From the NCBI GenBank assembly GCA_965208835.1, contig OZ242358.1, positions 4,352,001 through 4,416,000 of the forward strand: a stretch of DNA of 64,000 nucleotides. Reading direction: 5' to 3'. The notes below the pieces were generated by a model that was given only the letters and a program-made list of their open reading frames with translations, made no database searches and had not been told where the DNA came from. The position numbers were made by a program, and so were the translations under genes. This DNA comes from Candidatus Latescibacterota bacterium. GTDB taxonomy: Bacteria > Latescibacterota > UBA2968 > GCA-2709665. Below are positions 10,122-19,820 of the stretch, piece by piece; the stretch's first letter is position 1, and the number at the start of each line of letters is the position of its first letter.

Positions 10122-10976
10122 TCAGGCTGGCTCCTCTTCAGCCGGCGTCGCGGCTTGCTCGGGACCGGCCGGGGGTTCGAGCGGTGTCCCTTCGCGCTTT
10201 GCCATCTGATGAAACCATCGCAGCCCGATGACGGCCAGTGCGATACCGCTCGCAAACAGCCACCACGGAAGAAACTCCACAACTCCCCAATCCTCGATAG
10301 GACGGAATAGCTCCATACGCACCGAAATCAACGACAGAAAATTGTTCAGCGCGTGACCGAACAACGCGGGCAGCAACGAACCTGTCTGTACGACCCACCA
10401 GGCAAGAACAAGCCCCAGTATCAGGGCTCCCGTGAATTGCCAGGGATTCATATGCAATACGCCGAACAGCACCGCAGACCACACAATGGCACGCCACCGG
10501 GTACCGTGACCTAACAACCCGCCCAGAATAACGCCTCTGCAGAGGACCTCCTCAGTCAGTGGCGCTTGAATCGCGAGAACATAAAACGCGAGACCAAGAG
10601 GTGTTTTGCTCCCCATTAGATCGAGGAATATGTCGAGGTATACTTTGGGAACTGGAATCAGATATTGGACGAAGGTTGTAACGTTGGATATGACAATGCC
10701 GAATCCCAGGATCGAGACAGTAAGTGGGAGGTATATTCTCCACGGCACTGTCCTTAAAAGCAGGACGTCTGACCAGGGCCGACCGGATCGACGCTGTGCA
10801 TATAACACAAGGAGAGCGAAAATGGGGAGGCTTAGAATCCATCCCAGGTATTCGAAGATTCGTGTTTCATTGTCCGAGGCGGCGCCGAGGAAATGAAGCA
10901 CCATTCCCAATATGCCGGTTGCGACCACAAACAAGAAAATCAGCCAGACGGACTGCTTCAGATTCGGATACGCCAT
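10122..10976 (-). CDS. CPBP (Abi/CAAX) intramembrane metalloprotease, paralog 1
   Basis: EEVLCRG, FGVLH, HALNN motifs; polytopic; starts MAYPNLKQ. Confidence 0.9.
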   Translation of the reverse strand: MAYPNLKQSVWLIFLFVVATGILGMVLHFLGAASDNETRIFEYLGWILSLPIFALLVLYAQRRSGRPWSDVLLLRTVPWRIYLPLTVSILGFGIVISNVTTFVQYLIPVPKVYLDIFLDLMGSKTPLGLAFYVLAIQAPLTEEVLCRGVILGGLLGHGTRWRAIVWSAVLFGVLHMNPWQFTGALILGLVLAWWVVQTGSLLPALFGHALNNFLSLISVRMELFRPIEDWGVVEFLPWWLFASGIALAVIGLRWFHQMAKREGTPLEPPAGPEQAATPAEEEPA

Positions 10977-11060
10977 GTATTCTCTCCGATCTGTACCGGG
11001 GGATACCTGCAACTCGAATGATCCTGATCCACGGCGAGTGTCGCCCCGCGTGTAGCGCCG

Positions 11061-11915
11061 TCAGACAGATTTCTCGGCCGCCGCCGTTACGACCGGTTCC
11101 GGTTCAGCCGGTGGATCCAGCGGTGTCCCTTCACGTTTTGCGATCTGATTGAACCACCACAATCCGATTATGGCCAGGACGATGCCACACGCGTTCAGCC
11201 ACCACGGAAAGGACACCAGGTTATTGAAATCATCCATCGGCCCGAATATCTCGTATCGCGCAATCGTCAATGCCAGGAAATTGTTGATCGCGTGCCCCGC
11301 GATGGCGGGCAACAGGGAACCCGTTTGAATCACCCAGAACGCAAACACAGACCCCAATACAAACGCAGCCGGAAATTGCCACGGGTTCAGATGGAATAGA
11401 GCGAAAAGCAGTGCGGACCAAAAAACGGCGAGGCTTCGGCGCTGGTTGGCCAACAGCCCAATCAGAATGACGCCCCTGAACAACACTTCTTCGATAAGTG
11501 GAGGCTGGACCGCCAGGTTATAAAAGGCGAAAGCGTAAGGCGTTTCCTTCCAAACCAGATCCCGGAATATCTCCATCATCCATTCAGGCATTGGAATCAG
11601 GTAATGTACACCGCGTTCCAAAATGGATATGGTGATCGACAAACCAACAGTGGCCACCGTAAGCGACGGGTAGAGTTTCCACGGTACCGTATTAAAGAGA
11701 AGGATGTCGGACCAGAGCCGGTCAGCTCGGCGCCGGGCGTAAACAATCACGAGAACGAAACTGACCAATATCGTTAGGGTCTGCACGTACGAATTGGACG
11801 CTAGATCATAGTCGAGTAATGTGCCCGAAATGGCAAGGAGCACCAACAATCCGAACAGGATCAGCAGTAATAGGGCCACCAGCCAGACGGATTGCTTCAA
11901 ATTCGGATACGCCAT
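11061..11915 (-). CDS. CPBP (Abi/CAAX) intramembrane metalloprotease, paralog 2
   Basis: EEVLFRG, FALFH, HAINN; starts MAYPNLKQ after RBS GGGAGG. Confidence 0.9.
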   Translation of the reverse strand: MAYPNLKQSVWLVALLLLILFGLLVLLAISGTLLDYDLASNSYVQTLTILVSFVLVIVYARRRADRLWSDILLFNTVPWKLYPSLTVATVGLSITISILERGVHYLIPMPEWMMEIFRDLVWKETPYAFAFYNLAVQPPLIEEVLFRGVILIGLLANQRRSLAVFWSALLFALFHLNPWQFPAAFVLGSVFAFWVIQTGSLLPAIAGHAINNFLALTIARYEIFGPMDDFNNLVSFPWWLNACGIVLAIIGLWWFNQIAKREGTPLDPPAEPEPVVTAAAEKSV

Positions 11916-12071
11916 GTAATCCCTCCCTTTTGGGCGATCTGATGAACGTGGATCCAACGACCGTGCATAGAAGCACTGACGGTGGAAGTCCGTGCGTTTG
12001 CGGCTCTGACGAACGCCATGCAGCAGTCGCATTCGATGTACTGTAAAAGTGTCGAGCAGTCCTTTTCGAAC

Positions 12072-12087
12072 TGCAAAATGCAAGCCA
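12072..12087 (-). promoter_or_regulatory. Putative sigma-54 (-24/-12) promoter for CPBP paralogs 2 and 1
   Basis: Minus strand TGGCTTGCATTTTGCA (GG-N10-GC); AT-rich IHF-like tract CATCAAGTTATT just upstream. Confidence 0.6.
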
Positions 12088-12280
12088 GATTTGAACAAGC
12101 GAATAACTTGATGTATATAAAGTATTTATTAAAGATGGTGCGGCACTTTGAAGAGAAGCGGATGTGTAGCGATATGCGTCTCGACGCTTCAAGGAAGATG
12201 CCGGTACGCCGGCGCGGACGAGAGATGAAACCCGTGTCTGCGGGCTTTTTTTGGTAGCTGGAACGCGCGCGTTAAAATGC

Positions 12281-12314
12281 GATGCATTTTGCATCGAATG
12301 GCGCATTCTGCAAC
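12281..12314. promoter_or_regulatory. Paired 15-bp dyads, candidate enhancer-binding-protein sites
   Basis: GATGCATTTTGCATC (12281-12295) and GGCGCATTCTGCAAC (12300-12314), about 200 bp upstream of the sigma-54 site. Confidence 0.5.
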
Positions 12315-12426
12315 CCCTGGCGCCGGCCGAATGACCGAGGCGTCGCGCGCCGAAGACAAATACCTGACACGGCGATGAATAGCGCTGACACGTGATGGAT
12401 TTTGGTGCGGACCAACAGGGTAGACC

Positions 12427-12642
12427 AAAAAAAATCCCGCTCCATCCCCCGCTTAATCCGTGATGAGCTACTTAGCGGCACCCCGGTTAAAGGGTGCCGG
12501 GCAGAGTCACCACTCACGCAGCTTTGAGGATGCGGGAAGGTCCTACGTATTCGCCGAGGACATGGGAGCTACCCTTGTCCCTTTGTGTCGGCTGTTTTAT
12601 TCGGTAGGCTACCCGACATACGGGTACTGCCCGAGTGGTGAC
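12427..12642 (-). ncRNA. Unidentified structured RNA candidate
   Basis: Begins at the predicted +1 with GTCACCACTC, which pairs perfectly with GAGTGGTGAC (12515-12506); GGGCAG/CTGCCC crossing pair; several internal hairpins; ends at a U8 tract. Confidence 0.5.
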
Positions 12643-12648
12643 AACCGG

Positions 12649-12677
12649 AATATAGTTTCCGCTCTTGTGAATGACAA
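12649..12677 (-). promoter_or_regulatory. Sigma-70-type promoter of the structured RNA candidate
   Basis: TTGTCA-17 nt-TATATT on the minus strand. Confidence 0.6.
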
Positions 12678-12864
12678 GGGCTAATTTGCTTTTCTACAGT
12701 AACGGGTCCATCTGAGAGCGGCGAGGATGCGTACGTCGCTCACGTCGAAATACGGTATCAACGTCCTGATGCAACCAAGCCACATCAGGAGAATTGTGTT
12801 CACGCCTCGACGACTGAACTGTCTTCATTGGCGAAGGAACCCGCCACTGTGCCACGCCTCGTAT

Positions 12865-13350
12865 CTACTCCCGGCTCTCCTTCACGGATTCCCAGATCGG
12901 GTAATGAACTTCCGCCCGTTGAAACTCTCTCTGCAGCCACTGGCTGAATAAAATGTCGCGAATTTCGTTTGAAACGCGTTCGTCAAGGATTGCCGGAAAG
13001 TTCCGTTGCAGCATATACAACGCGAAACCGCCCGGCGCTTTCTCCGGTCCGAATAACTCACCTGGAGAGCCGGCAAACAGGCGGGCGGCAATGCCTTTGG
13101 GTAACTGTTCTCGCCGCACCCTGCCCAGATACCCGCCGGCAAGGCGGGTGCGCTCATCCTGTGAGAACTCCCGTGCCATTGCGCAAAAGTCGCCACCTTC
13201 CTCAATTGCCTGAAGTCCGATCTCATCGATCACGCCCCTGTCACTATGGAATATCCAGTTCACCTCCGCCTCGTCGAAATCCAGCGTGTGCTGCGCGAAG
13301 TACGGTTCGATCCTTCCGTCCACGACTTTGTCGGACAACGCACGCTCCAA
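12865..13350 (-). pseudogene. 5'-truncated PpiC/parvulin-type peptidyl-prolyl isomerase, of the type linked to peptide T1SS clusters
   Basis: GGDFCAMAREFSQD..T..AGGYLG.V.R..LP rotamase motif; in-frame stop five codons upstream of the TTG, no RBS, abuts the island edge. Confidence 0.7.
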
Positions 13351-13644
13351 CCGTTTCGCCCGTGTTCACGGACATCAAGCGATTACACAATGAGGTTGCG
13401 GTGACGACTGCGTGGCATGGTTCTCCCGTTTACTAACTGATGCGAGAACCGTGTACATCGAAATTGGGAGATTCTTATACGATTAATGGACACATTTCGG
13501 AGATAATTCAAGTGTTGGCGACCGCCTGAATTATTGTTATTTTGACTAAGATTCCGACCCAGAAACCGCTTCTAGATTGCCTTGTGGATGACTCTAACGA
13601 GAGAATCTCATTTCCGAGGAATTGAAAAACGGAGAGCTATCCAG

Positions 13645-16569
13645 ATGCCTCGTAACGACGAACCAACCATTAATCGAGCATTGGCCGAAGTATTGCGCGG
13701 AAGGAACGCACGTTGGCAAAACACTGGAGAGTTACTAGGTGCTGAGCAACTAGACATTCTATGCGAGGGCGGCAAACCAGATATCTTTGTGGATGACCCA
13801 TGCGGTGCCGCCGTCATCATCGAAACCGAGTTTTTTCCGGGTAATCAGGTCGAATTTGAAGCCCGCAGCCGTCTCGGAAACACTACCCAAAATACGGGAA
13901 AGACGATTGAACAGACAATTGCAGTTCGTGTACCGGACAGTCTAAGGGAGGTTAACCAATCTAAACTTAACGAAGCTATCGAGGCATCGACTCTTGAGTA
14001 TTGTCTGTATTCTCTGCGATTGTCATCGGGCGGCATTGATAGGTGGCCACCATCGGGTTGGTTAAGTGGTAATGTAGACGACCTCGCACAACTGGCTGAA
14101 ATTGCAGCGGTATCGGAGCGTGCAGTGACAACCAGTCTAGAGACTCTCGAACAGGGGATCCGAACTTGCGCCGGACGCTTTGAACAAGGGACCAGTGATC
14201 GACTTCAAGTAAGACAGCGGATCGCGCAATACCTACATCAATCAGAAGGTGAGCAGACTTGGCGGATGGCGATGGCAATTGTGACAAACGCTATAACGTT
14301 TCATACCACAATCGCTGGTACACACGGCGTGAAGACTGTGGACGAACTGCGTCTGTCAGACGGTAACTTGCCAAAAGCGACCGTACTTAGAGAATGGGAA
14401 CGGATCCTTCATGAGATTAATTATTGGCCTATATTCCACATTGCCAGGCAAGTTATGTTGGTCGTACCAAATGGTCTGGCATCCGAGATTCTCGACGAGT
14501 TGGCCGAAGTTTCCAGTAAACTTGCCGCCACCGGGATCACCCGTTCGCACGATCTATCGGGTCGGACTTTTCAGAGGCTGATTGCCGACCGTAAATTCCT
14601 AGCGACATTCTATACACTACCTGTTTCGGCAACGCTTCTAGCTGAACTTGCCATTGCAAGAATCAACATTGATTGGTCTAAAGCTATAGACATATGCCGC
14701 CTTCGAATTGGTGATTTAGCATCAGGTACCGGCACGCTCCTCGCGGCAGCGTACCACAGCGTTCTTGCTCGCTATCGCCGCCGAGGTGGGGACGACAGCA
14801 CGTTACATACAAAGATGATGGAGAATTGTCTTGTTGCGGCCGATATTATGCCGGCTGCTACTCACCTTACGACGTCGATGCTTTCGTCCGTACATCCAAC
14901 ACGTACGTTTCGGCGGACCAAAGTTCATACTCTTCCGTATGGAAAAGCGACCGAGAATCCGATTCTCCCGATCTCCCTAGGTTCACTTGATTTCTGCCTT
15001 GCCGCGGCTGGTAGAGACCTATTTGGGACACGAATCGTCGTCGCGAGTGGCAAGGGCGAAGACGAAGACTTGGAGAGTCGTGATACGGAAAATGGCGAAT
15101 TCACTCTTGCCCATAAATCGCTTGACCTGGTCATAATGAATCCCCCTTTCACAAGGCCAACTAATCATGAGCTATCGAATGTCCCGGTACCGTCGTTCGC
15201 AGGATTTGCAACCACTCATGACGAGCAACGCGCGATGTCAAAGCAACTTGGACGCATGAAACGAAAATTCGAACACGATGCCGCAGGTAATGGCAACGCA
15301 GGCTTATCCTCGAATTTCCTGGACCTCGCGCACCTGAAGTGCCGCGCAGGGGGGATACTGGCGCTCGTAATGCCTCTTTCTTTGTTAAAGGGAGATTCAT
15401 GGGCTGCGGGTCGTGGTCTGCTAGCAAGATGGTATCGTGACATAACGTTGGTTACCATCGCCGCGGCGAAGAGTAATGAAAAGTCGTTTTCAGCGGATAC
15501 GGGTATGGGCGAGGTACTGGTGATTGCACGCAAGAGCCATGCCCTAAACGCAAGACCAAGCGGAACGAAGGCGTTGTTTGTGACGTTACACAGAAGGCCA
15601 ACTGCGACAGCAGAAGCAATGGAGATCGCCCGCCACGTGCATCGGGAGTACGAAACGCGATCAAGCTCTACTCGAATCTTTGTTGGTGATCAAGTTGTCG
15701 GTACGACGTTCCGAACTGAAATGCGAAACGGAGGCTGCGGTGGTGTACGTGATCTAGAACTTGCAGAGATCGCCATAGCTCTCGTGTCCGGTAAATTAAG
15801 GTTACCAACTGTTAATTTGCCACTTAAAATGTCGACTATTCCCCTTGGTCAATTAGGATCTCGAGGTCTAGTCCATCGTGACATTAATGGCATCAACAGC
15901 GATAGATCTTTTCGAGGTCCATTTGAGATTTATCCCGCATCGCACCAACCCACTTATCCAGCATTGTGGCGCCATAACGCCGCGCGAGAAAGACAGGTGC
16001 TTCTGTTTCCTGATTCTGAAGGGCACATCAGGCCCGGAATGGAAGGCAAAGCCGCTGAGGTATGGGGTACTGCCAGTCGACTCCACTTCAATCTAGATTT
16101 TCGCCTTAATTCGCAGAGCTTAGCCGCAGCTGTAACCGAAAACAGGACAATTGGTGGAACGGCATGGCCAAATTTCCGAGCTAAGAATCTGGATCATGAG
16201 TCGGCAATCGTCCTCTGGTCAAATACGACATTGGGTCTGTTCTTGTTTTGGTGGAACGCTAACCGACAACAGGCCGGCCGAGCTAGATTGACCATTACGC
16301 AACTGCCGTCGCTATTGGTTTTGGACGCAAGGCAACTTTCGTCGACTCAGATCGCCACATCGGATTCACTGTTCGACGAGTTTGCGAATCTAATGCTCCT
16401 GCCTGCAAATGAAGCATTCTGCGACGAAGCGCGGATTGCACTTGATGAGAAATTCCTTGTCCAAGTATTGGGGTTGCCTCACTCGATACTTGAGCCGTTG
16501 GGAGTTCTACGAGACAAATGGTGCGCCGAACCGTCGGTGCATGGTGGCAAGAGTACGAAGATTTCGTGA
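13645..16569 (+). CDS. Type IIG-like fused restriction endonuclease/N6-adenine methyltransferase
   Basis: N-terminal KPDIFV..VIIETEF (PD-(D/E)xK-like), FYT, DLASGTGTLL (motif I), VIMNPPF (motif IV), C-terminal specificity region; RBS GGAGAG before ATG 13645. Confidence 0.8.
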   Translation: MPRNDEPTINRALAEVLRGRNARWQNTGELLGAEQLDILCEGGKPDIFVDDPCGAAVIIETEFFPGNQVEFEARSRLGNTTQNTGKTIEQTIAVRVPDSLREVNQSKLNEAIEASTLEYCLYSLRLSSGGIDRWPPSGWLSGNVDDLAQLAEIAAVSERAVTTSLETLEQGIRTCAGRFEQGTSDRLQVRQRIAQYLHQSEGEQTWRMAMAIVTNAITFHTTIAGTHGVKTVDELRLSDGNLPKATVLREWERILHEINYWPIFHIARQVMLVVPNGLASEILDELAEVSSKLAATGITRSHDLSGRTFQRLIADRKFLATFYTLPVSATLLAELAIARINIDWSKAIDICRLRIGDLASGTGTLLAAAYHSVLARYRRRGGDDSTLHTKMMENCLVAADIMPAATHLTTSMLSSVHPTRTFRRTKVHTLPYGKATENPILPISLGSLDFCLAAAGRDLFGTRIVVASGKGEDEDLESRDTENGEFTLAHKSLDLVIMNPPFTRPTNHELSNVPVPSFAGFATTHDEQRAMSKQLGRMKRKFEHDAAGNGNAGLSSNFLDLAHLKCRAGGILALVMPLSLLKGDSWAAGRGLLARWYRDITLVTIAAAKSNEKSFSADTGMGEVLVIARKSHALNARPSGTKALFVTLHRRPTATAEAMEIARHVHREYETRSSSTRIFVGDQVVGTTFRTEMRNGGCGGVRDLELAEIAIALVSGKLRLPTVNLPLKMSTIPLGQLGSRGLVHRDINGINSDRSFRGPFEIYPASHQPTYPALWRHNAARERQVLLFPDSEGHIRPGMEGKAAEVWGTASRLHFNLDFRLNSQSLAAAVTENRTIGGTAWPNFRAKNLDHESAIVLWSNTTLGLFLFWWNANRQQAGRARLTITQLPSLLVLDARQLSSTQIATSDSLFDEFANLMLLPANEAFCDEARIALDEKFLVQVLGLPHSILEPLGVLRDKWCAEPSVHGGKSTKIS

Positions 16570-16724
16570 TTGGTTACGAGTTCATTCCTGTTCAACGTTG
16601 GCAACCCTACTGATCAAATCCACACATATGTGTTTTTAAATCATAGTTCACCATCCAGAAAATTCCGTTGGCAAAAAAGTTCAAGTTGATATACTGAGCG
16701 CCTTTATTTTGCAAGGAGATAAAC

Positions 16725-19700
16725 TTGGATTTTCCTGACAATTTGATCGAGACGATAAGTTCCGGGAACTGCGTACTCTTCTTGGGCGCTGGAGCTGCAC
16801 GTGAAGCCGGTGCCCCCGTCGGCAATGAACTTGCGACACTACTGGCAGACAGATTCGAAAAGCACGATATCTCTACACATAATTTGCGAGAATTCGTAGA
16901 TGTATTAGAAACGACTTCCGGAGTTGATAGACAGGAAATCGACAAAGCAATTGTAGAAACACTTCAAAAAACATCACCGTCAAATGCCCATCTTTTTCTA
17001 CCGGGTTTTGTTTGGCAAGCAATTTTCACCACTAACTATGATCGATTAATCGAAATTGCTTACGACATTTATCGAACTTCGCGAGGTGAGCCACCCTTAC
17101 AAAGGTGCAATGTCGTAAATGGTCTCCAAGATCAAGTGCGGTTAGACAATCGTTCGTCCGTCAACCTGTACAAATTGCACGGCTGCATTTCGTCAATAGG
17201 ACAAGGCAATCCATTGGTTTTGTCTTCGAGAGATTATAGGAATACTCGCAAGAAACGTCAGCGGATGTTGCGGACATTGAAAATGTTAGCGGTAGAACAT
17301 TCTATTCTGTTCATCGGCTATTCGTTCGCGGATCAATACTTGAGTGAGTTGTTGGATGACATTCAGCAAGAATCTCCGTATCATCACCACCGAACGATGT
17401 TTCTTGTAATTCCCGAATTAACGGCGAGTTATGAAGAGTATTTCCAATCCCGGAACTTTAAACACCTGTCTGGAACATTTGGTCAATTTTGCGAAAGTCT
17501 TTCGGAGCTTGTCGAGACGGAGGCCAGAAAAAAAGCACTTACTTCGAGGATTTCTTCTGTACAGACTGTTGGAGATCGCTCAGCTTCAATTCCTACGAGT
17601 CTTAGAGTATCTTTAGACTCGCAATTGGAGATATTCCGACCCGAAGGCAGCTTTAATAGGAACCCAAAGAGATTCCTATCAGGTTTTCCACCATCCCTAG
17701 ATGACTTGAAGAGTCGGAATGATGTAACACGTGATCAACAATTCGAGCTGACCGAAAGTGTCCGAAAGGCACTGCGTACGGAGGCCTACCTTAGGCCAAT
17801 AGTGATGGTACTTGGAGCGGGCGGCGCTGGGAAGAGCACTCTTGCTGCAAGAGTTGCTTACGATATCGCAGATCAGCGGCTGGCGATTTCATGTCGGCTG
17901 AAGAATCCAGAGCAATGGAATATCGATGAAATTGTAAACTTTGCGGACAGGATTCAAGCACCGGTGCTCTTCGTTTTTGATGGAATTGAAGTGCGAAGTT
18001 GGCTTCGAGCGACAAAGGATCTTCGTCAAGCATTGACAGTCGCACGCGTAAACGCCACACTGTTGCTATCATGCCAAAAGGCAGTTTGGAACGAATGCAA
18101 AGCTAAGATGGGCAGCCAAGATATCGAGGTGTTTGATCTCCAGGATCGCCTCTCGGAAATTGAGGCCGCTAGCTTGATAGAAAAATTGACCGAAGCGAAA
18201 CTGTTGACCACGGACGCGAAGATACGCCAGCGGGAAGTCTCGAATATTGTAAATGAATGCGACGGTCATCTAGTGGCGGCGCTACTGCAAATCGTGCAAA
18301 GCGGCAAATTCAAGGCTATTGTACTCGGTGAATACGGGAATTTGTCGCATAGAGCCCAAAAGGCATATCAATTTGTCGCTCTACTACACCAACATCGCAT
18401 TTCGATTCCGGATTATCTGCTCAATTCGGTTAGCACCAACAATTGGGATATTTTCGTTGATCAAGTTATTCGCGAAGAGTCTGAGCTTGTAATTATACAA
18501 GACCTTGACGCCACATCCGGCAGACTAAGGTTCCGGAGTAGGCATCCTTTGATCGCAAGGACGATAATCGACGCCACTGTGCCAAAATTTGAAGACAGAG
18601 TGAGGATGTATCGGCGGATTTTCGCGGAGTTAGCGGCGTCAGCTGAAGACCGATCATTTGTTCTTACACTATTGACGACCGAAAGCGTTAGACGAGAGAT
18701 TCGCGAGGAACAGTATTTGGAAGAATTCTTCGATCGTGCGTTGGATCTCTTTCCCGATGATCGGGCTCTAATTCTTCAATTTGGGCGCCACGAAAACAAC
18801 GCAGGGAACTACGAAAGAGCGAGGGAGATTTTGGAATGGGGGAAAAGCATCAACCCAAGAGACAGTCACATACTTCACCAACTTGGCGTCTGTGCTCAGC
18901 GCCGCGCGAGGCGCGTGAAAGAGAAAATCGACCCTCTATTACATGACTCGTTGATCCAGGAAGCCAGGTATTATTTCCGGCAGGTCCAAGAAATCGATCC
19001 AATTTCACAATACGGATACGTCTCGGAGGCTAGGTTGGCTATAAACCTCGCTAGAAATGAAAAAGATCAGGTCCAGAAATTCGCGCTGATTTCTGAAGCA
19101 GAATCGATCATTCGTAGTGGCCTACTTCTTGTAAGGGAAGACGACCACGACATTTTGAGAGGTTGCGAGGCAGAACTATCCGACGTGGCCGGAGATACCA
19201 GTGAAGTGCTCCATCGACTGTGCGCTTTGGACGAAAAAGAAACCTTAGGATACGGGTCCTTATATCATCTTTGGGCAGCTTGTCTTGTTCGTGTGGGAAA
19301 TGTTGACGAAGCAATTGAAGTGATCAAGCGTGGCGTTAAGGACTTCCCGGGCGACGAGATGCTAATTCAGTTGATGCTTCAGATTCTCGAAGGATTTCTA
19401 TTTCGGGCTCGCAGTCGGGATGTTGCTAGTGAGTTTATCGGATATCTCCAGCGAGAGACAGAGAACATGAATATATGGATAGTCTTCCTTAAAGGCGTAG
19501 TGGAACTCTACGACACTCAATATAGGTTAGCAATGGAGTCATTCATGGAAGTGCGTCGACGTATGAACTCTCGAGCGTCAACGCGAATTCGGGATTATCT
19601 TAGGGACGAGTCCGGACACGAAATACAAAAGAGGGGGATCATTGAAATTGGACGATATGGGCGACCTTGGATAAAGGATGTAGGCACTGGTATTAAGATG

Positions 19701-19820
19701 CCCGTCGACAATTCTCAATTCTGGGAAAGGTCCGGCAAACCTCGCGATTGCGTCTTTCTGATGGGATTATCCCTTATGGGTCCAAGAGCATCGATAATCG
19801 AGAAATATCAGAATGGCTAG
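16725..19820 (+). CDS. SIR2-STAND NTPase-TPR protein (Avs/AVAST type V-like)
   Basis: SIR2: FLGAGA, TTNYD, YKLHG, FIGYS; Walker A GAGGAGKS, Walker B VLFVFDG; SRHP winged-helix motif; TPR-like helices; RBS AAGGAG before TTG. Confidence 0.8.
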   Translation: MDFPDNLIETISSGNCVLFLGAGAAREAGAPVGNELATLLADRFEKHDISTHNLREFVDVLETTSGVDRQEIDKAIVETLQKTSPSNAHLFLPGFVWQAIFTTNYDRLIEIAYDIYRTSRGEPPLQRCNVVNGLQDQVRLDNRSSVNLYKLHGCISSIGQGNPLVLSSRDYRNTRKKRQRMLRTLKMLAVEHSILFIGYSFADQYLSELLDDIQQESPYHHHRTMFLVIPELTASYEEYFQSRNFKHLSGTFGQFCESLSELVETEARKKALTSRISSVQTVGDRSASIPTSLRVSLDSQLEIFRPEGSFNRNPKRFLSGFPPSLDDLKSRNDVTRDQQFELTESVRKALRTEAYLRPIVMVLGAGGAGKSTLAARVAYDIADQRLAISCRLKNPEQWNIDEIVNFADRIQAPVLFVFDGIEVRSWLRATKDLRQALTVARVNATLLLSCQKAVWNECKAKMGSQDIEVFDLQDRLSEIEAASLIEKLTEAKLLTTDAKIRQREVSNIVNECDGHLVAALLQIVQSGKFKAIVLGEYGNLSHRAQKAYQFVALLHQHRISIPDYLLNSVSTNNWDIFVDQVIREESELVIIQDLDATSGRLRFRSRHPLIARTIIDATVPKFEDRVRMYRRIFAELAASAEDRSFVLTLLTTESVRREIREEQYLEEFFDRALDLFPDDRALILQFGRHENNAGNYERAREILEWGKSINPRDSHILHQLGVCAQRRARRVKEKIDPLLHDSLIQEARYYFRQVQEIDPISQYGYVSEARLAINLARNEKDQVQKFALISEAESIIRSGLLLVREDDHDILRGCEAELSDVAGDTSEVLHRLCALDEKETLGYGSLYHLWAACLVRVGNVDEAIEVIKRGVKDFPGDEMLIQLMLQILEGFLFRARSRDVASEFIGYLQRETENMNIWIVFLKGVVELYDTQYRLAMESFMEVRRRMNSRASTRIRDYLRDESGHEIQKRGIIEIGRYGRPWIKDVGTGIKMPVDNSQFWERSGKPRDCVFLMGLSLMGPRASIIEKYQNG

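Follow-up and report, generated by a model that had tools for sequence, protein, structure and literature searches.

A family of predicted pseudoknotted leader RNAs in Candidatus Latescibacterota, apparently an extended variant of sRNA-Xcc1 and most likely a cis-acting switch

The plant-pathogen RNA sRNA-Xcc1 is poorly understood, and its role has been unclear since 2010. In Xanthomonas campestris, sRNA-Xcc1 gives a single Northern band of about 100 nt, and its mapped ends delimit 88 nt (PMC2996969). The integron cassette with the widest distribution in Xanthomonas carries it ahead of the toxin gene symE (bioRxiv 10.1101/2025.06.18.660453), an island of Xylella carries five tandem copies about 385 nt apart, and the Xylella homologues have been detected as RNAs (PMC12189769). 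We found no description of a long form or of a riboswitch role among the papers listed on sRNA-Xcc1 or on Latescibacter riboswitches. A 2011 paper by Chen et al. reportedly presents sRNA-Xcc1 in its title as a trans-acting sRNA.

Other described RNAs offer points of comparison. ZTP, preQ1-II/III and SAM-II are pseudoknot riboswitches with strand-displacement expression platforms. The C4 antisense RNA of phages P1/P7 (RF01695) has three related sites in its transcript: an antisense strand is preceded by one copy and followed by another, the latter close to the gene under control. The c-di-GMP-I (GEMM-I) riboswitch is found in many copies per genome, before diverse membrane, secreted and unknown-function genes.

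Here we analyze an RNA encoded in the window, by which we mean the whole 64,000-nt stretch of Candidatus Latescibacterota DNA under study. The flagged stretch encodes a genuine folded RNA that is strongly conserved and has a predicted promoter and a putative stop signal of its own. Comparison of sequences and covariance models indicates that its family is an extended variant of sRNA-Xcc1, and most likely a cis-acting switch.

The window RNA and its relation to sRNA-Xcc1

The window RNA is 216 nt long and runs along the minus strand from 12642 to 12427, so that position 1 is 12642 and position n lies at 12643-n. Its features are as follows.

12672..12677, minus strand: -35-like hexamer TTGTCA, read in the sequence, 17 nt from the -10
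12649..12654, minus strand: -10-like hexamer TATATT, 6 nt before RNA position 1
12627..12642, minus strand: P0 5' strand GUCACCACUCGGGCAG, positions 1-16, beginning at the predicted transcription start
12618..12626, minus strand: J, UACCCGUAU, positions 17-25, with a conserved CCCG and without a supported partner
12609..12617, minus strand: P1 5' strand GUCGGGUAG, positions 26-34
12542..12608, minus strand: P2 domain, positions 35-101, a branched hairpin of P2a, internal loop, P2b, P2c and P2d
within P2, minus strand: P2a, positions 35-39/97-101, followed by the internal loop GAAUAAAACA//GAAUAC
within P2, minus strand: P2b, positions 51-55/86-90
within P2, minus strand: P2c/d, positions 63-71/77-85, with loop UAGCU
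12522..12541, minus strand: J' with conserved CUUCCCGCAUC, positions 102-121, 5' strand of the putative long-range terminator stem
12506..12521, minus strand: P0 3' strand CUGCGUGAGUGGUGAC, positions 122-137, from covariation and mutual information (MI)
12496..12504, minus strand: P1 3' strand CUGCCCGGC, positions 139-147, one base after P0
12476..12498, minus strand: hairpin H3, GGCACCC...GGGUGCC, positions 145-167, three bases of which are common to the P1 3' strand
12460..12467, minus strand: degenerate third copy of the P0 5' strand, CUCAUCAC, positions 176-183
12435..12447, minus strand: putative terminator 3' strand GGAUGGAGCGGGA, positions 196-208, G-rich
12427..12434, minus strand: U8 tract, positions 209-216

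The promoter named in the initial annotation, TTGTCA-17-TATATT, is present in letters and spacing (12677-12649, minus strand), and a promoter scan of the minus strand from 11500 to 13600 picked out this site alone. It is predicted to be sigma-70-like. A TAnnnT motif begins 15 to 10 nt before the first P0 base in 87 of 101 family copies, and a TTGACA-like hexamer stands at the matching distance in 64 of the 101. The U8 end (12434-12427) was likewise read correctly; at least six U occupy this place in 13 of the 14 genus orthologues, the tract being degenerate in L162. The minimum free energy (MFE) of the whole RNA is -89.3 kcal/mol (z = -3.5), and none of 200 shuffled sequences folds as well. 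As the annotation had stated, there is no convincing ORF: those in the ORF list that overlap the RNA are short and have no Pfam family match.

In a search of the whole window with Rfam 15 at gathering thresholds, the sole match was a tRNA at 2670-2752. The statement that the RNA belongs to no known family therefore holds at Rfam thresholds, but below them a relative emerges: the sRNA-Xcc1 model (RF02221) matches 12488-12617 on the minus strand with 24.6 bits and E 0.12, short of its gathering score of 53. In the same genome, this model gives 26.1 bits at L149 and 35.5 bits at L150. It was also the only recurrent weak Rfam match in a test of 20 family loci at E up to 5, with nine matches in eight loci (26-36 bits). 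One Sphingomonadales locus found by the core pattern described below exceeds the RF02221 threshold (57.3 bits) and scores 52.5 bits with our own covariance model, R1; in that separate set of 20 pattern-matched loci, two more match RF02221 below threshold. No sequence or model match to any Rfam riboswitch was obtained for the window RNA or the 20 family loci.

The correspondence can be followed helix by helix. The closing helix of sRNA-Xcc1 (GgCcGGggG/CccCCgGcC) equals P1 of the window RNA; GUCGGGUAG/CUGCCCGGC followed by ACCC matches its closing helix of about 9 bp and CACCC tail, and the internal loop AAUACAAUA//GAAUAA corresponds to GAAUAAAACA//GAAUAC. Both RNAs lie ahead of a gene, which for sRNA-Xcc1 is symE. 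They differ in size, sRNA-Xcc1 being a compact RNA of about 88 nt whereas the window RNA has a core of 147 nt and is twice as long. Beyond sRNA-Xcc1, the window RNA has the 16-bp P0 crossing P1, a 32-nt branched insertion in P2, J' and an expression platform; where sRNA-Xcc1 has its short second hairpin, the window RNA has J' and the P0 3' strand instead. To judge from these likenesses, the core of the window RNA is a distant, extended relative of sRNA-Xcc1, and L150, a 114-nt copy at 35.5 bits, appears to bridge the short sRNA-Xcc1 form and the long form.

In Sphingomonadales short forms (L107, L126, L127 and L095), the segment that the Rfam model takes for a local hairpin forms about 16 bp with a strand lying upstream of the model (such as GCGCGUGGAUCACAGG). 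Because of this upstream pairing, the Rfam model of sRNA-Xcc1 may cover only part of the real structure.

Conserved helices and a revised pseudoknot

R1 was built from 34 copies and has 149 positions and 33 pairs. For the structure test, 101 distinct copies from the phylum were aligned to it. Standard pairs fill 94.2% of cells in these 101 copies, compared with 74.2% after shuffling, and none of 500 shuffles reached as high a value. Both sides change in 38 of 42 pairs, and sliding the partner strands cuts pairing to 32-42%. In a scan of MI with APC correction, the top 25 pairs all fall within the P0, P2 and P1 helices. Covariation among homologues, the check proposed in the initial annotation, thus supports all three helices on the 101 distinct copies.

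P0 is a 16-bp helix at the 5' terminus in which positions 1-16 pair with 122-137, with one G.G mismatch. Its first part had been recognized beforehand as a perfect complementarity between GUCACCACUC (1-10) and GAGUGGUGAC (128-137), which is confirmed. Both sides change in all 15 P0 pairs, 96-99% of cells are paired, and P0 pairs head the MI ranking. The next six nucleotides, GGGCAG, extend P0 by pairing with CUGCGU. They had been assigned instead to a pseudoknot with CUGCCC, which finds no backing in the alignment: 56.9% of cells are paired, compared with 55.9% after shuffling, and 48 of 500 shuffles do as well. That pairing would also be sterically impossible alongside P0, since a linker of 1 nt would have to span 16 bp.

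Covariation does support a pseudoknot, but its partner strands are GUCGGGUAG and CUGCCCGGC, which form P1. Even though P1 was deliberately left out of the alignment model, 97% of its cells pair. Pair 33:140 (AU 39, CG 21, UG 14, GC 11, GU 9, UA 3) ranks 8th by MI, and pair 34:139 is equally varied in kind (GC 46, AU 12, UG 7, UA 5, CG 3). Since the P1 3' strand begins one base past P0, a linker of 1 nt in most of the 101 copies, P0 and P1 cross, either as a pseudoknot or as a pair of alternatives. From helix geometry, end-to-end stacking of P0 and P1 would be impossible with a J of 9 nt.

P0 encloses a conserved core, namely P2 with its GAAUA//GAAUA internal loop together with the C-rich J and J'. 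In P2a, P2b, P2c and P2d, both sides change in every pair, and the bases of the P2 internal loop are invariant or nearly so in 34 copies. About 37 columns in loops and junctions are invariant, and they are conserved across phyla. Downstream of P1, H3 forms a perfect stem of at least 6 bp from exactly the same base in 57 of 101 copies; its arms covary, and the stem averages 5.2 bp compared with 1.5 bp in shuffles. Two further stems of the initial annotation, GGGACA.GGG/CCC.UGUCCU and GGCACCC/GGGUGCC, are present in the sequence. A third, UACCCG/CGGGUA, did not hold up: 64.0% of cells are paired versus 61.9% when shuffled, the CCC/GGG core alone is kept, and a slide of -1 does equally well. Similarly, a nested helix Px in the MFE fold (AUGUCGGG/CCCGCAU) shows no real covariation (79.4% paired versus 75.6% shuffled).

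Alternative folds, downstream genes and regulatory readings

The nearest genes downstream on the same strand encode two CPBP (Rce1-like) intramembrane proteases.

11061..11915, minus strand: first CPBP gene (Pfam PF02517, E 5e-19)
10122..11012, minus strand: second CPBP gene, in tandem (Pfam PF02517, E 1e-19)

The order PpiC-type isomerase gene, RNA, CPBP gene is kept in all 14 loci of the genus. From U8 to the CPBP start, the distance is about 510 nt in the window and 180 to 750 nt in the genus, and the spacer (11916-12426, minus strand) contains neither a convincing ORF nor a match to Pfam. Since it measures only about 180 nt in L153, L164 and L169, some of this spacer looks like a lineage-specific insertion. 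The promoter scan found no other promoter-like site between the RNA and CPBP. The first CPBP gene is likely the controlled gene. Divergently from the RNA locus, two large genes occupy 13582-19820 on the plus strand: the product of one has 995 aa, matches nothing in Pfam and contains an NPPF motif, typical of N6-adenine methyltransferases, and the other encodes a 1031-aa SIR2-like/STAND NTPase/TPR protein. They look like a defence-island pair.

How could the RNA act on the genes that follow it? A terminator scan found no simple local hairpin before U8. The only stems available at this place are long-range ones, formed with either J' or the P1 3' strand. The alternative pairing before the U tract noted in the initial annotation is indeed available: UCCCGCAUCC, in J', can pair with GGAU-GGA-GCGGGA (196-208), at -19.1 kcal/mol. 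When this stem between J' and the tail is forced, the RNA forms one long rod-like hairpin before U8 of -86.7 kcal/mol, nearly equal to the P0-closed fold at -89.3 kcal/mol (pseudoknot energy not included). In addition, the degenerate third copy of the P0 5' strand, CUCAUCAC, forms a duplex with the P0 3' strand of -13.6 kcal/mol, and exact third copies of a P0 strand of at least 6 nt were seen for some of the copies listed. The same long-range pairing is made with other letters in L232 (UUCCCGCAGU/ACUGCGGGAA-U6) and in L226 (CGCAGUAUCU/AGAUAACUGCG-U8). Within the genus, tail variation consists mostly of bulged bases at 200-202; L154 and L165 have one base change each in the tail stem, and L155 has two, which weaken it.

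Among the copies listed, a minority resemble the window RNA in having a U tract ahead of the gene. With a crude caller, a Shine-Dalgarno (SD) sequence and start codon were found within 140 nt in 62 of 101 copies and in none of the other 39. In these 62, J' pairs with the native start region at a mean of -14.7 kcal/mol, compared with -11.5 kcal/mol for 400 background start regions of the window's genome; 27% of the pairings fall within the best 5% of background and 13% within the best 1%. Examples of such translational versions are GAGAUGCGGG in L031 and GGAGAGAUGC in L029. Compensatory changes accompany the pairings of J' with the terminator and with the start in other copies. As a whole, the family signal for duplexes within the downstream 175 nt is modest, with a mean z of -0.75 for the P0 3' strand (18% below -2) and of -0.84 for J' (13% below -2).

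Given these features, we think it probable that the window RNA is a cis-acting two-state leader, that is, a riboswitch-like transcription attenuator governing read-through into the two CPBP genes. While the P0/P1 fold is intact, J' (CUUCCCGCAUC) and the P0 3' strand would be occupied, the G-rich strand before U8 would be left without a partner, and RNA polymerase would read through. If that fold is lost, the downstream CUCAUCAC would capture the P0 3' strand and J' would pair with GGAUGGAGCGGGA, giving the long rod hairpin before U8 at which transcription would stop. Such a leader would be a default-off attenuator, turned on by a stabilized P0/P1 fold. Candidates for the signal choosing between the folds include proteins, ions, second messengers and other small molecules; we regard a small-molecule ligand as a possible rather than a probable trigger. 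Characteristics of riboswitches are found here: a conserved structured domain with invariant unpaired bases lies in a 5' leader, and mutually exclusive folds overlap the conserved domain, with a partial family-wide signal. The logic would resemble that of the ZTP, preQ1-II/III and SAM-II riboswitches, in which a long-range pseudoknot closes the sensing fold and a segment freed on failure builds a terminator or masks the ribosome-binding site. Unlike those, the gene associations of the present family show no metabolic theme. Three related sites within one transcript also recall C4 antisense RNA; homology is not supported, with no RF01695 match at E up to 10 at the window RNA or at E up to 5 in the 20 loci.

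The suggestion of the initial annotation, a novel sRNA or riboswitch-like attenuator upstream of the CPBP pair, is thus partly supported, by covariation, by the conserved synteny in all 14 loci and by a putative terminator whose 3' strand pairs with J', although the RNA is not unrelated to known RNAs. Several observations weigh against the attenuator. The simple on/off scheme is incomplete, because the P0-closed MFE fold still pairs the P1 3' strand with the G-rich tail. In addition, about 510 nt separate the terminator from CPBP, a long distance for an attenuator, and the genes downstream are of very different kinds and suggest no ligand; the modest duplex z-scores, the 39 copies without a called start, the weakened stem in L155 and the degenerate U tract in L162 all count against it. 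So does the prototype, sRNA-Xcc1, reported as a discrete 88-nt RNA on Northern blots (PMC2996969).

This last point is shared by the main competing explanation, which we consider unlikely: a stand-alone, trans-acting small RNA, always terminated at U8, with the CPBP genes as mere neighbors. The discrete band of sRNA-Xcc1 and the detection of its Xylella homologues as RNAs (PMC2996969; PMC12189769) are in keeping with such an RNA, as is the U tract at the end of the window RNA and of 13 of 14 genus orthologues, with 180 to 750 nt still to go to the gene. Yet across the phylum, 89 of 101 copies are followed within 420 nt by an SD-preceded ORF on the same strand, 62 by the crude caller reach an SD and start codon within 140 nt, and a U tract ahead of the gene is the minority case among the copies listed. 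Moreover, J' complements the RNA's own start region or terminator, with compensatory changes, CPBP has no promoter-like site of its own after the RNA, and the most variable part of the family is the helix P0 rather than a single-stranded seed.

The products of the downstream genes bear on a further alternative. A signal-peptide-like or membrane-like start was found in 51 of the 89 products, compared with 15% of 6512 background ORFs under the same crude rule. Among the 59 of these 89 products that were searched against Pfam, after near-duplicates and doubtful short ORFs had been left out, 43 have no family at E 1e-5 or better. The 16 with a match comprise an OMP barrel, CPBP, LRR, three WD40, Sel1, dockerin, CsgG-like and SNase proteins, as well as MunI, HNH, two dynamin-like GTPases, a superinfection-immunity protein and DUF1232. 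A separate mixed set of 49 products includes ankyrin, LRR, GST, Rrf2, DDE transposase and HEPN-nucleotidyltransferase proteins, with 32 lacking a family. So mixed a cargo would fit a generic expression module, namely a constitutive 5' element without a sensor that protects the mRNA from 5'-end-dependent decay or fixes the level of termination or translation, its alternative folds being folding intermediates only. The start of P0 at the predicted first transcribed base in most copies agrees with this. We nevertheless judge it quite improbable: about 37 invariant loop and junction columns across phyla go far beyond the needs of a stabilizing hairpin, and each of the two folds is conserved, with little difference in energy between them. 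Many copies ahead of varied genes are equally a trait of the c-di-GMP-I (GEMM-I) riboswitch, from which the family differs in having no Rfam model match and an unrelated architecture.

We regard it as very improbable that the RNA merely marks the boundary of a mobile element or gene cassette, whether a MITE whose terminal inverted repeats would be P0 or an integron-like cassette signal. Multiple copies (up to 13 per genome, with four identical ones in one genome), a copy before a DDE transposase, tandem copies in Gluconacetobacter about as far apart as those of the Xylella array (PMC12189769) and sRNA-Xcc1 in integron cassettes (bioRxiv 10.1101/2025.06.18.660453) would suit it. However, copies within one genome have P0 strands of different sequence that remain complementary, contrary to what inverted repeats bound by a transposase would show; P0 does not include the promoter; the orientation toward the downstream gene is consistent; and gene order at the locus is shared by 14 species of the genus.

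Distribution and possible meaning of the family

The window RNA is not confined to this locus; it proves to be one member of a large multi-copy family. By BLAST, an orthologue of 85-94% identity occurs in 13 of 14 other species of the genus, a second copy of 78% identity lies in the window's genome, and weaker copies extend across the order and class. R1 matches in all 14 genomes of the genus and in 62 of 151 genomes sampled from the phylum. It finds 97 of 100 supplied loci, proteobacterial forms included, and gives no match at the remaining three (L082, L085 and L091). The window's genome has four R1 matches (152.5, 135.3, 50.2 and 47.7 bits). The two weaker copies are L150 (G000:C1:1108161-1108274, minus strand), the 114-nt short copy, which lies ahead of a secreted dockerin-like protein, and L151 (G000:C1:1493853-1493994, plus strand), in which P1 is degenerate.

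A 20-nt core pattern retrieves at least 120 loci from the species-representative genome collection. Among the matches listed, the records belong to Candidatus Latescibacterota, Gemmatimonadota, Acetobacteraceae (Gluconacetobacter, Komagataeibacter, Acetobacter), Caulobacteraceae/Brevundimonas, Sphingomonadales and Kaistia. Relatives of the family occur in Acetobacteraceae, Caulobacterales and Sphingomonadales. Matches in Chlamydiae (L040), Nocardia (L054) and Mycolicibacterium (L105), together with L065 and L076, were judged by eye to be chance or coding pattern matches and were rejected.

Overall, a large family of intricately folded leader RNAs is missing from Rfam. Its members are known from two or more bacterial groups that are only distantly related, and the genes behind them mostly code for exported proteins whose function is not known. 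If these RNAs sense a signal, the secreted and surface proteins they control in uncultured symbionts would make up a new regulon, and sRNA-Xcc1 would gain a testable function. Only tentatively do we suggest that the P0/P1 pseudoknot and the GAAUA//GAAUA loop might form the aptamer of a new, phylum-crossing riboswitch class for a widely used signal, perhaps a second messenger or else a molecule that stems from the host or the envelope. Were this true, the signal would switch on secreted ankyrin, LRR, WD40 and Sel1 proteins, membrane proteases and defence-type genes in marine or sponge-associated bacteria, and sRNA-Xcc1 of plant pathogens would not be an ordinary base-pairing sRNA but this sensor in trimmed form.

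Some individual copies have features of their own. Signal-peptide-bearing ankyrin, LRR, WD40 and Sel1 proteins lie downstream of L030, L074/L170, L179, L228, L189, L253 and others. Eukaryote-like repeat proteins are typical of sponge symbionts. Several DNA runs labeled as marine or sponge metagenome contain parts of the window, each in small shares; among the runs listed for 11900-12900, none is of RNA. In one genome, four identical RNA copies (L044, L120, L137 and L138, at G040:C1 positions 304990, 631102, 2368381 and 2611359) have identical flanks, and therefore leader and gene lie together inside a repeated element there. The transposase downstream of L034 is of the DDE_5 type. At three Gluconacetobacter loci (L033, L045 and L080), tandem RNA copies stand about 400 nt apart, a spacing that matches the five-copy sRNA-Xcc1 array of Xylella (PMC12189769), and behind each copy a conserved small protein is encoded, about 76-126 aa in length and without a Pfam family.
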